From a virus, in IMG/VR virus record IMGVR_UViG_3300002334_000124, positions 20,765 to 84,764 of that record: a DNA stretch of 64,000 nucleotides; one strand, written 5' to 3'. The notes beneath the pieces are model-generated. The model was not told the origin of the DNA. It did no database searches and saw nothing but the letters and a program-made list of their open reading frames with translations. Each line of letters starts with the position of its first letter. Position 1 is the stretch's first letter. This document shows, piece after piece, positions 17,380 through 60,802 of this stretch. The position numbers were made by a program, and so were the translations under genes.

Positions 17380-18189
17380 ATGAGTTTCGCACGTGCTCTA
17401 TTGCAGGATCTCTACATCAAGGAAGCCCTTGTTGAGATCCCTAGACCCGCAGAACCCGAACTGGACGAAGAGGGTAGTCCGGTTTTGGATGACGACGGTA
17501 ATGCCGTCATGGTCGACCAGGACCCGATTGTCTTCTATGCACGGAAGATGAACCCTCTCCAGCAGGAGTCTGCTGCACGTAGGGCGTCAGCGGCTCAGAT
17601 TCATATGCGTCGTCTTGTTTTTCGTCCTGATGATCCCGATTATTCAATCATGGAATCGGCCGTCGACGAAATCGAAGATCTGTCAATGTTTGTTGCCAGA
17701 GTCGAAAGCAATAACGACACCGACAAGATGCAACAAGAGCTCTCGGAAGAAGACGAATGGGCGAAAGACAACTACTACCAGTCGTTGATTGATGCGTGGA
17801 CTCCCAAGATGAAGAGGGACTGGACCGAAAATACCGAAGAGGAACGTGATCCAGAGTCGAAAAGGATCTGGGCCGAGCTGAAGCGTTTCGATGACATTCT
17901 AGAAGACAAGATGAAGTCGCGTCGTACGAATCGTGCAGCTGAAGTTGAAGCTAAGCCCGAAGAAGAGCAACGAAAATTGGTCTTCAAGATCCTCTTGGAA
18001 CAGCAATGCAACGGGGAGTGGATGCGTGTATTCAATCTGTGGCGTCAGATTTATGGCATCGTGGACAAGAACAAGGATCGGGTCTTCGAGGATGAAGACG
18101 ATGCTATGTCGTCACCAATTGAAGCTCAACGGATCTTCCGCCAGGCCCTTGACCGCATCACCCTTAGCGTCACAGATGTAAAATCCTAG
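17380..18189 (+). CDS. Tail assembly chaperone (G)
   Basis: Between tail tube and tape measure; acidic, helical. Confidence 0.65.
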   Translation: MSFARALLQDLYIKEALVEIPRPAEPELDEEGSPVLDDDGNAVMVDQDPIVFYARKMNPLQQESAARRASAAQIHMRRLVFRPDDPDYSIMESAVDEIEDLSMFVARVESNNDTDKMQQELSEEDEWAKDNYYQSLIDAWTPKMKRDWTENTEEERDPESKRIWAELKRFDDILEDKMKSRRTNRAAEVEAKPEEEQRKLVFKILLEQQCNGEWMRVFNLWRQIYGIVDKNKDRVFEDEDDAMSSPIEAQRIFRQALDRITLSVTDVKS

Positions 18190-55319: not shown

Positions 55320-55650
55320 CAATCGTTGCCTTTTTCCATGGGATGGCATCACACAGATATTCTAGGTAAGGAGGTAGTAGCACAATTGCAGTCATGGGCG
55401 AACTTGAATACTTGCCGAGGGCACGTTCGAGGGAAGCTAATCTTTCACAGACGTCGCAACTATAAAAATCTAGCCACGCCTGTGGAGTGTTGTTTCTGCC
55501 ACACTGGCAACATCTACCGGGAAAATCGGAGGTTGCTAAGACTGCTGCTCGCATTCGGCCATCATGCAGCAAAATGCCATCTTGATATGGAGCCCAAGAA
55601 AGCGAAACCCCCAGGATCACCAGTCCGCGAGGCGTCATTAAGTTGACCAT
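55312..55650 (-). CDS. Zn-finger paralogue 7
   Basis: [43 protein letters not shown]. Confidence 0.75.
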
Positions 55651-57286: not shown

Positions 57287-57678
57287 ATGGGACTCAAATT
57301 GACTGTCCATGATTTGCCACCGCTCCATGGCTCACTGGTGCACAGATACTCCAGGCAAGGAGGGAGGAAGATCAGCAGAGTTGTTTTGGTCCCACTAATG
57401 GGAAGACCCGGACAGTCTATACAGGTATGAGTACCGACGTAGGCGTAGTAGGCGCCGGTCGAGTATTTCTGTTTCTTGTTGTGCGAACCACATCTGGAAC
57501 ACCTACCCCAGTATCGTGACGTTGCCAATACTATTGATCGCATTATCTGATAACGATGATTGAACAGGATGCCATCCTGGTACGGATCCCAATACGATAG
57601 GTCCGACTTTTCCGCGGCACATCGAGCCGATACGCCCAGTAGAACTAGACCTTCTTTGACGGGTATGTTGACAGTCAT
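57283..57678 (-). CDS. Zn-finger paralogue 1
   Basis: AGGAGGT RBS; MTVNIPVKEGLVLLG..QDGIL..GRCSRCG..CIDC..LPPCLEYLC. Confidence 0.75.
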   Translation of the reverse strand: MTVNIPVKEGLVLLGVSARCAAEKSDLSYWDPYQDGILFNHRYQIMRSIVLATSRYWGRCSRCGSHNKKQKYSTGAYYAYVGTHTCIDCPGLPISGTKTTLLIFLPPCLEYLCTSEPWSGGKSWTVNLSPI

Positions 57679-57712
57679 TCAGGACCTCCTGTCTGGGTTG
57701 TGGACGTAACAG

Positions 57713-57741
57713 AAGCTAGCAGTGTAGTAGAGATGCGTCAA
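57713..57741 (-). promoter_or_regulatory. SigA-type promoter TTGACG-N17-TAGCTT with extended -10 TG
   Basis: Direct reading; near twin at 60015-60043. Confidence 0.65.
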
Positions 57742-57754
57742 GCTGAAAGACTTA

Positions 57755-58281
57755 GGAGAGGCGCGATAGGTATGGGTTTCGTGGTGAGCGTGGCCCCTCC
57801 CTTAGAATCGAAGTTGGCTGGCGCGTGAGTTTTGGGTTCCGACGCTCTTTTGGCCAGACCAACTTCAGAGTTGTCAAGAAATAACCGGAGTGCGGCGTCA
57901 GTTTCATGGGTTTCGCACCTGTCATGGCTGCACCCCGGTAGAGAATGGAACTGGCTGGCGATGCTCGTTTGGGTTCAGACATGTCCTTGGCCAACCAGTT
58001 CCAAGAGGTAACCGAGCGTGACGAAGTATTAAGGGGTTTCGCAGCATCCTGGTCACGCTCGGTAGAAATGAGGATTGCCCTGGTTGACGGTGACACTCTG
58101 GGTTTCGCGAAGTTCAAGATCAACCAGGGTAGAAAAAGTAGGGAAGGTAGAAAGGGTAGAAAATGATCCCCTACCGCGGACTCACAGTGGGTTTCGTCGT
58201 TACTCTGGCAGGTAGGGGATCAGAGAATGGTGGACTGGCGGCTTTTCCGTGGGTTTCGCGTCATGGTTGGCCAGCCCGCCA
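57755..58281 (-). ncRNA. TIGR-like stem-loop guide array, 8 units
   Basis: Each unit on - strand: stem-GGCCA-N9-CGAAACCCA-N9-CGCC-stem; loop repeats at + 57773, 57833, 57907, 57970, 58033, 58099, 58188, 58250. Confidence 0.88.
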
Positions 58282-58290
58282 GAATAAAAC

Positions 58291-59058
58291 CTATGCGGAG
58301 TCCACAGCGACCCACAGGTCTTTGAGTAGGTTCTTCTTGATGATCCTGAGACCATGATTGTTTACGTGTCCCGGTTTCCAATCTGGATGGGCCAGAGCAG
58401 CTGACGTTTTGGCGTCGTAGTAGTAGTCGCAGTATCTTTCGTTCTTCAACCTCACCATGTTTCCAGCGATGACATGCAGGATTATTCCTGCGTTCTGGTT
58501 GCCTAAAGCCTGAGCGGCTTCCTGTGTCATGCCCGTTTTCCGTCTTTCTTGGCTACCTACACCACAGTACTGCCAAAGCATGCTCACTGAACGGGGTACG
58601 GTTTTGCCTGACACGAGGATCTGTTCAGGCGTATCGTCCCGCTTCTTTTTTCCCGTGGGGTCGTCTTCATGCCACATCGGAGTCTTCCAGCATGGGTGAC
58701 CGATCGCGCCGAGCAAACGGCCGAACGACTTATCGTTCAGTCCACGTGTCTCTTCCATGAATCCGACGAAGACGGGCGGGAGTACTTTGATTTGCGTTCC
58801 AAGTAGCGTTACAAGTTTGGTTTCCTGGTCAAGCATCACCGCGGCGTACTCGAACACTTCAGGGGCTGCGCTCACATTGCGAACAATCAGCTTGTCTTCT
58901 TTACCTTCGCGGATCTTCCTGCTGATGTTTGCCTTGCCTTCGATCCCGAGTCTGTTGTCTAAGGAGATCCGGTACTTCATTGAGCTTTCAAGGAGCAAAG
59001 AGGTCATGGCGACCAGTTTGAAATCTCCGAGTACTTTCTTGGTTGGCTTCTTGGCCAT
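58291..59058 (-). CDS. tasA: Nop-domain/IS110-related RNA-binding protein without nuclease domain (TasA-like)
   Basis: RISLDNRL coiled coil, RGLNDKSFGRLLGAIG, SVSMLWQYCG, YYYDAK, HVNNHGLRIIKKNLLKDLW; no RuvC or HNH; flanked by dual-spacer arrays. Confidence 0.8.
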   Translation of the reverse strand: MAKKPTKKVLGDFKLVAMTSLLLESSMKYRISLDNRLGIEGKANISRKIREGKEDKLIVRNVSAAPEVFEYAAVMLDQETKLVTLLGTQIKVLPPVFVGFMEETRGLNDKSFGRLLGAIGHPCWKTPMWHEDDPTGKKKRDDTPEQILVSGKTVPRSVSMLWQYCGVGSQERRKTGMTQEAAQALGNQNAGIILHVIAGNMVRLKNERYCDYYYDAKTSAALAHPDWKPGHVNNHGLRIIKKNLLKDLWVAVDSA

Positions 59059-59101
59059 TGGGTTTCGCTTTCTATTTGGGTTTAGTTGGTGTTATTGAAC
59101 T

Positions 59102-59239
59102 TAGAGGGCTGGCGCAGCGGCTCTGGGTTTCGAAGCTGTAATGGCCAGCCCTCTAGAAATTAACCCCTGACTGCCAGTCAAGGGAAAGTGCGGGCTGGCG
59201 CCTATTCTGTGGGTTTCGAGCCATTCCTGGCCAGCCCGC
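59102..59239 (-). ncRNA. TIGR-like guide sub-array, 2 units
   Basis: Loop repeats at 59124 and 59210, 9-nt spacers, near-perfect enclosing stems. Confidence 0.88.
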
Positions 59240-59250
59240 TGAGATTGAAC

Positions 59251-59823
59251 TTAGGTGATGTCTGGGACTTCGTATTCGGGACGCTTCTTCAGCACCGCCC
59301 TCAATGACTTGACACCTTCGGCGTTCATGTCGTCGATGGCTTGCTGATGTCCGCTGATCGTCTTCTCGATACCGTTGACATCCTTTTGCAAGAACTTGAT
59401 GCGAGCCTCATGCTGTTCGGGGGTGGCGTCCAGATAGTTGGCACGATGAGCGTTACCTTCATCATCGATCCAGGGGAACTCGACATGAGATAGGTACGCC
59501 CACGGATTCCGCTGCTCTACGACTGTGCCTCCGCCTTTCTTTCCCTTCTTGCCTTTGGCTGCCCTCTGTTGGGTGTCGATGTCCTTGCGTTCCTCGAATA
59601 CAGCCGCGACTATAGGCTGGGTTACACTGTTCCTGACCATGGGGACCACAGCTCCAATGATGCTCGGGATGACAGAGTCTTCTGCCCCGTCGCTCCTGAT
59701 GGAGTTCCAGGCCATCAAACCGTGGTCGTAGTTGGAGAACGTTGGGTTGTTGATCAACGAATCTTTGATGTAGTCCCGATAGGACTTCGTCGCGACCTTG
59801 GTCTTCTTGGTTTTCACTGCCAT
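59251..59823 (-). CDS. Unknown protein embedded in the TIGR-like locus (190 aa)
   Basis: AAGGAAAG RBS before ATG 59823 (MAVKTKK); basic patches; C-terminal coiled coil. Confidence 0.75.
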   Translation of the reverse strand: MAVKTKKTKVATKSYRDYIKDSLINNPTFSNYDHGLMAWNSIRSDGAEDSVIPSIIGAVVPMVRNSVTQPIVAAVFEERKDIDTQQRAAKGKKGKKGGGTVVEQRNPWAYLSHVEFPWIDDEGNAHRANYLDATPEQHEARIKFLQKDVNGIEKTISGHQQAIDDMNAEGVKSLRAVLKKRPEYEVPDIT

Positions 59824-59854
59824 GTTTGCTTTCCTTGTAGTTGGTGGAGAAAGG

Positions 59855-59975
59855 TTGATCGGGCTGACGGGCGCTTGATGGGTTTCGCGTGCAGGATGGC
59901 CAGCCCGATCAAGGGTGTTTCCCTGGCTGGCGAAGCGTAATTGGGTTTCGTTCCGTTTCTGGACAGCCAAGGAAA
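59855..59975 (-). ncRNA. TIGR-like guide sub-array, 2 leader-proximal units
   Basis: Loop repeats at 59879 and 59942, 9-nt spacers, enclosing stems. Confidence 0.88.
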
Positions 59976-60014
59976 GAATGTTGACATCCCCTCGAATCTC
60001 GGGAGTCTAGAAAG

Positions 60015-60043
60015 AACTTAGCAGGTTTACGGGTCTGCGTCAA
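60015..60043 (-). promoter_or_regulatory. SigA-type promoter TTGACG-N17-TAAGTT (extended -10) upstream of the TIGR-like operon
   Basis: Direct reading; about 40 nt upstream of the first unit. Confidence 0.65.
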
Positions 60044-60432
60044 ATGTCGACGTCAACAATCTCCCAGTCCATTGCGTCAGCGAGGCCTCTCATGTGAGCT
60101 GTCCCTCGTCCACCGGGGCACGCCACGAGGATCGTCTTGTTAAACAAAGACTCAAACAACGAGGGATGTGATTCACAAGTGACAGCAGTAGCCAGCATCC
60201 CCATCCGCTTGTTCCTCTGAGGGCCAGCACTACGTCCTTCAGCGTCCCACAGTGCAGGCATCGTGACGAAAGGGATCCCCTTGTCTAAGGCGTACCGAGC
60301 ACCGATAGCATCGGCCCCTTTGGCCCCTCCGTTGATGATGAAGGTGGGTTGGACTTCGTCGAGTGTGGCATACAGGGCTTGCGTCCCATTGTAGTTGCGG
60401 CCACCACAAACTATGACGGTACGTTCAAACAT
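60040..60432 (-). CDS. SLOG-family (DUF2493/YspA-like) protein
   Basis: VCGGRNY, INGGAKGAD, AGPQRN, PGGRGT. Confidence 0.85.
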   Translation of the reverse strand: MFERTVIVCGGRNYNGTQALYATLDEVQPTFIINGGAKGADAIGARYALDKGIPFVTMPALWDAEGRSAGPQRNKRMGMLATAVTCESHPSLFESLFNKTILVACPGGRGTAHMRGLADAMDWEIVDVDI

Positions 60433-60802
60433 AGCTCTTCTTCGTTAGGGTTCGTCTACGCTTCTTTGGTATCTCCAGAATGGGGTTCGGTCGTTTACCT
60501 CCAGTGATGTGAAGCTCGGGGGGTGTGACGTGAGCTTCGAGTTTGACCCACTTCTGATCGCAGAACACTCCTACGAATATGATCCTCGTGATCTTGCGGT
60601 CTGGCTTCTTTTCGTCTTTGAGCCAGCGACGGAGAGAATTCCATCGTACGTATCGCCAGACCTTATGACCGCGTTGGCCTTCTTCCATCGATTCGAGCAG
60701 CAACTGGAACAGACGTTCCTCGAATTTCTTTTCGTCTTCAAAGTACTCGATCTCGCTTGATGAAGAGCCGTTTCTCGACCATGCATAATGGATCTTCCAC
60801 AT
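60425..60802 (-). CDS. Hypothetical protein
   Basis: ORF in operon, overlapping neighbour. Confidence 0.55.
   Translation of the reverse strand: MWKIHYAWSRNGSSSSEIEYFEDEKKFEERLFQLLLESMEEGQRGHKVWRYVRWNSLRRWLKDEKKPDRKITRIIFVGVFCDQKWVKLEAHVTPPELHITGGKRPNPILEIPKKRRRTLTKKSYV

Follow-up and report, generated by a model that had tools for sequence, protein, structure and literature searches.

The closest described counterparts of the locus reported here are the stem-loop TIGR-TasA systems, of which the TasA of a Peromyscus gut contig (Faure 2025, PMC12045711) and BlTasA and MbTasA (Xu 2026, bioRxiv 10.64898/2026.09.09.750476) are examples. According to the main text of Faure 2025 (PMC12045711), box C is CCA and box D is a two-base UG; both boxes are read base-specifically, with each protomer of the Tas dimer reading one box D/box C pair in the TasR structures, and edge and loop repeats make near-identical contacts with two Tas-dimer protomers. 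The main text of Xu 2026 (10.64898/2026.09.09.750476) describes the loop of stem-loop systems as mostly 9 nt in length, with C or U in box D depending on the clade, and its TIGRFinder refers to 'degenerate repeats at array boundaries'. Units located in the 5' end of tas are already reported in the same text, together with the suggestion of a possible link between tigRNA maturation and Tas translation. The balance between effector and guides, as well as the expression of tas and of the guides, are stated open points for TIGR-Tas.

The locus was found in a 64-kb window, the whole stretch of DNA that was analysed (GC 0.51), which belongs to an 84,764-bp IMG/VR virus record estimated to be ~57% complete. 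Similar to the stem-loop TIGR-TasA systems, as far as these are described in the main texts, it combines a solo-Nop effector with a phage carrier and has sub-arrays upstream of, between and downstream of its genes, in the order two units, ORF190, two units, tasA and eight units. Different from the stem-loop TIGR-TasA systems in Faure 2025, box D here is CG, not UG; with its 9-nt loop and a C in box D, the array agrees with what Xu 2026 describes for stem-loop systems. The 12 units follow the grammar 5' arm / CCA / N9 / CG-AAAC-CCA / N9 / CG / 3' arm; nine have the exact loop repeat CGAAACCCA and three a loop changed at one or two bases. The strict CCA-N9-CG grammar fits 10 of the 12, the remaining two having a deviant first box, and the closing CG (box D) is present in all of them. 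Each unit has a stem of 5-14 contiguous pairs with arms that differ from unit to unit, and for unit 4 the computed folding energy is -29 kcal/mol (z -4.95), a value equalled by none of 200 shuffles. Loop spacings within sub-arrays are 60-66 nt in six of nine cases. A search of Rfam returned no family at E up to 1. Taken as a whole, the system is an ordinary member of the family described in 2025-2026.

The sequence-only reading had called the effector gene tasA-like, and profile searches bear this out. Profile A1 (50 sequences) had only two matches in the PDB, TasR (9MTY, the TasR model of Faure 2025, PMC12045711; E 8.4e-27) and TasH (E 2.4e-20), and aligned to residues 116-297 of the 331 of TasR, that is, after the RuvC part. 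Profile A2, made of two sequences, had 9MTY as its top match (E 0.009), the TasA sequence alone gave no PDB match, and PHROG 4285 matches TasA at 1.6e-21. No Pfam family was found in TasA, with neither HNH nor RuvC at E up to 1, and one of the 50 aligned homologues matched Transposase_20. Because the profiles match TasR and TasH and the alignment is confined to the part after RuvC, the gene is assigned as tasA and its product as a TasA with a predicted Tas-type Nop domain and no nuclease domain. A phmmer search against 1.84 billion representatives identified 539 TasA homologues. A single close homologue, P0002, is 72% identical to TasA and shares its first nine residues; one weak homologue accompanies it. 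In the tasA frame, a TAA lies 36 nt upstream of the ATG with no start codon in between, so that the ATG at 59058-59056 is the first possible tasA start.

TasA-like genes are also present in 81 Mycobacterium phage records (e.g., Bethlehem, BPBiebs31, and Rufus), in which genes annotated as 'transposase' or hypothetical encode products ~26% identical to TasA. Units with the box grammar lie upstream of the TasA-like gene in 10 of the 12 Mycobacterium phage loci examined (L024-L035), and the 'transposase' label on these genes is probably wrong.

The minus strand at 59083-59056 reads AAACCCA, AATAGAAAG, CGAAACCCA and ATG, exactly as it had been described from the letters alone. The Shine-Dalgarno (SD)-like AGAAAG falls within the 9 nt after CCA, and the perfect loop repeat then occupies the entire gap from this hexamer to the ATG, which it abuts. 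The window holds 10 exact copies of the 9-mer; they all fall within 57773-59950 of the minus strand, nine in stem-loop units and the tenth in the tasA leader (Table 1; boxes in the leader loop repeat are assigned following the main text of Faure 2025, PMC12045711). The spacing from CCA through N9 to the loop is the same as in real units; the element is a partial guide unit in exact array register, in line with the half unit of the earlier description. Of the four box motifs, the element retains three, and its loop repeat matches at 9/9 positions. The element thus has the 5' box C, the 9-nt spacer A and the loop repeat of a functional unit (59079-59059); it is not a full unit because the stem and the closing box D are missing. 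Both absences had been claimed and were confirmed: the second 9 nt are followed by AA in place of CG, leaving no closing CGCC, and the best flanking pairing is 3 bp vs the 5-14 contiguous bp of the 12 units, with a fold near random (leader plus first codons, 77 nt, -4.7 kcal/mol, z -0.48; 58 of 200 shuffles as good). Since it is unstructured, the tasA leader is predicted to be accessible. By its motif content and spacing, the leader element belongs to the phage's own TIGR array as a pseudo-unit without a stem, and it forms the whole translation-initiation region of tasA.

Table 1. Features of the TIGR-TasA locus and of the tasA leader (positions in the 64-kb window).
Feature	Position	Strand	Remarks
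Units 1 and 2	59855..59985	-	Upstream of ORF190
ORF190, partner gene	59251..59823	-	Leader and first codons paralogous to those of tasA; three box motifs absent
Unit 3	59190..59245	-	Stem-loop unit
Unit 4	59100..59160	-	Last complete stem-loop unit before tasA; loop 65 nt upstream of the leader copy
Loop-repeat-like motif CTAAACCCA	59077..59085	-	8/9 to the loop repeat (1 mismatch)
CCA, 5' box C of the pseudo-unit	59079-59077	-	Last three bases of CTAAACCCA
Spacer-A position, 9 nt AATAGAAAG	59068..59076	-	Spacing identical to real units
SD-like AGAAAG	59073-59068	-	Ends 9 nt before the ATG
Exact loop repeat CGAAACCCA	59059..59067	-	Box D CG, linker AAAC, box C CCA; 0 mismatches
Spacer-B position ATGGCCAAG	59050..59058	-	Start codon and tasA codons 2-3
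AA in place of box D CG	59049-59048	-	After the spacer-B position
tasA	58291..59058	-	255-aa solo-Nop TIGR-associated protein, without nuclease domain
Units 5-12	57750..58285	-	Downstream of tasA

A chance origin of the leader element is excluded. The half-unit CCA-N9-CGAAACCCA occurs nine times (eight in full units, one in the tasA leader) against 0.02 expected from 100 shuffles, and the full 28-nt pattern, allowing up to two mismatches, occurs once against an expectation of 0.00 in shuffles, for an element that was selected post hoc for its tidy look. These expectations also argue against the view that the loop likeness is a by-product of composition in a generic initiation context, in which this phage would prefer leaders rich in A and C and free of structure because ribosomes load on them readily. 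We consider this explanation unlikely. From the local base composition of the leader, the 9-mer alone would have a probability of ~1e-3 by our own estimate, and of 213 crude ORF starts only 6 have A[AC]CCCA in the 30 nt before them, among these six tasA itself and a spurious frame that runs through unit 7. The leader is indeed unstructured, as a generic context would have it, and AACCCA also stands directly 5' of the ATG of an unrelated gene at 55650 (minus strand), which speaks for composition and counts against a dedicated role of the motif in tasA. The gene at 55650 encodes 112 aa and belongs to a tandem small-gene family downstream of the array.

The leader of ORF190 served as an internal control. 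When the region from the end of unit 2 to ORF190 codon 12 was aligned with that from the end of unit 4 to tasA codon 12, the score was 46.5 vs 23.8 +/- 4.8 for shuffled sequences, none of 500 shuffles reaching it, which indicates that the two translation-start modules are paralogous. The ORF190 leader, like that of tasA, is rich in A and C, and both contain CACCAACTA, an SD ending in AGC, and AAAC, a similarity that a generic initiation context would also account for. The two leaders differ mainly by small indels, at the first CCA, at the G of CG and at the second CCA. Because these indels remove exactly the boxes from the ORF190 leader, the boxes are specific to the tasA leader in this two-sequence comparison, from which the derived state is not assignable.

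ORF190 itself matched no Pfam and no PHROG family. Its relatives lie immediately upstream of tas in six of 48 IMG/VR loci (tblastn E 3e-7 to 4e-4, mostly over the C-terminal 50 residues), and it looks like a conserved partner gene in this Tas clade, judging from this gene order.

Ribosomal proteins are subject to feedback through mimics of rRNA sites. A precedent from a related RNP is the archaeal protein L7Ae, which binds a k-turn located in the 5' leader of its own mRNA (PMC5539422, PMC6298567), and, as far as that work is described in these papers, the present case resembles it in that the recognition motif of a guide-RNA/RNP protein is copied in the initiation region of its own mRNA, with titration by the main RNA ligand as the proposed principle. 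For L7Ae, binding and regulation were shown experimentally, whereas here they are predicted from sequence, and the candidate site is a linear one of box C/D type for a Nop domain, not a k-turn. With the loop repeat taken as a protomer site from the main text of Faure 2025 (PMC12045711), a copy of the recognition motif lies in the initiation region of tasA, between the SD-like AGAAAG and the start codon. We tentatively interpret the leader element as a TasA-binding translational operator, which we regard as a good possibility though short of probable.

How such an operator could work may be outlined as follows. The loop repeat carries box D and box C in cis, and since both boxes are in cis, the leader loop may represent one complete protomer site between SD and AUG. 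A second box C lies exactly one spacer upstream of the loop repeat; this second protomer site is incomplete for lack of a closing box D and of a stem. TasA free of mature tigRNAs would bind the leader and block the 30S subunit from the SD and AUG, and plentiful guides would titrate TasA off the leader, whereupon translation would resume. With neither stem nor closing box D, the leader should be bound yet not excised from the mRNA. The element might in this way act as a stemless, processing-proof tigRNA mimic that lets TasA synthesis track guide supply, a scheme that is possible and that we put forward with some reserve. The sequence-only reading had suggested that free protein could bind or process its own leader. 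Binding of TasA to its own leader is plausible; processing is unlikely because the stem is absent and published processing maps to the stem base. We infer binding and repression by TasA and its titration by guides; autoregulation is, for now, a reasonable idea. In favor of an operator, the leader loop is exact at 9/9 positions in a place with neither coding nor stem constraint, while 3 of the 12 real units carry one or two loop changes. Counted on the same side are the unit-like CCA-N9-CG spacing, the 65-nt distance to the loop of unit 4, the exact fit of the loop between SD and AUG, the box-specific difference from the ORF190 leader, the unstructured state of the leader, the published base-specific reading of the boxes and the recurrent overlap of units with the tas 5' end.

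Alternatively, the element might be an inert array-boundary remnant, produced either by degeneration of a terminal unit or by slippage that copied loop and spacer, at the point where the sub-array of units 3 and 4 meets tasA; the tasA leader would then be of an ordinary kind, rich in A and C and weak in its SD, and any TasA binding would be without effect. We rate this account as possible, with some doubt. The main texts of Faure 2025 (PMC12045711) and Xu 2026 (bioRxiv 10.64898/2026.09.09.750476) describe truncated or degenerate repeats as something ordinary where arrays end, which favors a remnant and weighs against an operator, and the element shares with them that it is incomplete, in register and at a sub-array end. 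Its loop comes 65 nt, one array period, after that of unit 4, and the codons after the ATG resemble the usual 3' arm GCCAGCC at six of seven positions as read by eye. Unlike the published terminal repeats, which consist of half an edge repeat, the element keeps a full loop repeat, has lost edge and stem, and coincides with the ribosome-binding site. Decay that went as far as abolishing all stem pairing should also have damaged the loop and the spacing of the unit, but the 9-nt loop and the 9-nt spacing are both intact, and its 5' side is a second loop-like copy (8/9) rather than a decayed stem arm. The departure of the paralogous ORF190 leader exactly at the boxes is likewise against a remnant.

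Conservation bears on both readings. No close TasA relatives were found in IMG/VR, JGI metagenomes or GTDB genomes, and blastn against phage records gave no match. The comparison covers 58 distant loci (22-37% identity), comprising 48 from IMG/VR and 10 of 14 from GTDB, L082, L089, L091 and L093 being left out as matches without the N-terminal part or cut by a contig end. Of the 48 IMG/VR loci, 34 carry arrays of this grammar upstream of a tas gene in the same orientation, and several of the related IMG/VR loci have a loop repeat identical to CGAAACCCA. The sequence-only reading had proposed conservation of the motif at related tas starts as a check, and the outcome was divided. The stemless copy did not recur: no loop repeat with up to one mismatch lies within 20 nt of the tas start in any of the 19 related loci with a separate start, that is, those classed as having the tas start after the last unit, with start codons picked by inspection. 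Three of the 19 do have exact loops, at -37 to -43, but as part of the last full unit. Found in none of these 19 distant loci, the leader motif appears not to be generally conserved ahead of tas, which counts against an operator and agrees with a remnant. Among the loci compared, this phage is so far the only one with a stemless loop copy at the ribosome-binding site.

What did recur is the overlap of tas with complete units, seen at the 5' end of the gene in 15 of 58 related loci (10 of 48 from IMG/VR, 5 of 10 from GTDB). In these loci the tas frame runs open across one or more of the last units, and the first start codon in frame does not come between unit and conserved N-terminal helix, so that the overlap follows. 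In one locus (L016) the ATG lies within the 5' stem arm, and in another (L086) the sole start is directly adjacent to the 3' arm. Judging from these gene starts, it is common for the beginning of tas to be entangled with guide units. The leader element resembles the units in the tas 5' end that are described in the main text of Xu 2026 (10.64898/2026.09.09.750476) in that guide-unit sequence covers the tas start on the same strand. Unlike it, those overlaps are complete, stem-bearing, processable and in-frame, whereas here a stemless three-box fragment, mostly in the 5' untranslated region, lies over the SD. In three of the loci (L002, L013, and L020; ~2430-2830 in each), an SD and ATG are followed a few bases on by several in-frame stem-loop units, which continue up to the conserved Tas helix. 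Their loop repeat translates as D/E-T-H/Q, and the same motifs are present in the N-terminal extensions of P0010-P0012.

Scanning IMG/VR for CCA-N9-CGAAACCCA-ATG yielded 30 stretches, seven of which lie in arrays with at least five units per 1.5 kb; all seven are complete units with a spacer B that starts with ATG. In one of the 30 (L063) the ATG heads a Tas ORF (hmmsearch E 4.7e-45). This locus was rejected as a parallel: its unit is enclosed by a complete stem, spacer A is devoid of an SD, and a second in-frame ATG 14 codons on follows an SD-like AAGGGA. A CCA at or overlapping the start codon in five of the relatives (L007, L016, L040, L045, and L049) was also set aside, being near chance in GC-rich DNA.

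TasA proteins are RNA-guided transcriptional repressors according to the main text of Xu 2026 (10.64898/2026.09.09.750476), and control could accordingly be imagined at the DNA level, with the leader DNA targeted by TasA-tigRNA for transcriptional self-repression or with the pseudo-unit itself loaded as a guide. The spacers of the 12 units and the pseudo-unit, in both arrangements, were searched against the 84,764-bp record (57% complete), which revealed no perfect or one-mismatch site and no match in the tasA leader. Sites at two, three and four mismatches numbered 1, 4 and 18; the 132 mis-paired controls, after scaling to 13 units, gave matching values of 0.3, 3.1 and 23, and on these counts self-targeting was rejected for the 12 units and for the pseudo-unit alike. 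The pseudo-unit also lacks the closing box D, and we consider control at the DNA level very improbable. The one two-mismatch site, at 17496 (plus strand), matches the unit 5 spacers in the layout of B followed by reverse-complement A (2 mismatches in 18); with ~0.3 expected, it is within chance. Antisense pairing between spacers and leader was likewise discarded, as the best pairing (8/9) was reached by 27 of 300 shuffled leaders.

If the leader element is a TasA-binding operator, it would provide the first feedback circuit described for TIGR-Tas, and a single loop repeat, preceded at nine bases by a box C, would define a minimal linear RNA tag sufficient for Tas binding. In the literature surveyed, no work joining tigRNA and autoregulation was found, the text of Xu 2026 as available to us containing neither autoregulation nor UTR; no description of a stemless leader element was found in the main texts of Faure 2025 and Xu 2026, and their supplements and TIGRSafari may list this record or such elements. 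Compared with the units of stem-loop TIGR-TasA systems in these main texts, the leader element differs in being without stem and closing box D. Its short and mutable sequence offers a cheap, direct handle on whether Tas senses guide supply via its own mRNA and on whether a loop repeat suffices for binding. If it is inert, the locus would document a sub-array that ends at a gene start and would warn array finders of stemless boundary copies.

Several further features accompany the locus. The sequence CTAAGTTC occurs three times in the 64-kb window, in each case on the minus strand within the TIGR locus: before unit 1 (60014-60021), before unit 3 (59247-59254) and before the tasA leader (59097-59104). 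The total count alone is not significant, as 22 of 100 shuffles reach three. A TTGACG (60043-60038, minus strand), a candidate -35 element, lies 17 nt upstream of the TAAGTT in the first copy. This copy together with TTGACG may constitute the promoter of the locus, although it is absent from the output of a simple sigma-70 scan of 57400-60700, in which no minus-strand promoter met the rule. A gene for a YspA/SLOG-family protein (PF10686, E 4.5e-14) is located just upstream of the array at 60040-60432 (minus strand). Units 3 and 4 are flanked by an exact 11-nt direct repeat (59094-59104 and 59244-59254, 150 nt apart), which may be a trace of insertion or duplication of the unit 3-4 block. Between these two units, a 9-bp hairpin with a T-rich tail (59164-59184, minus strand), without box motifs and flagged as terminator-like, accounts for their long spacing of 86 nt.
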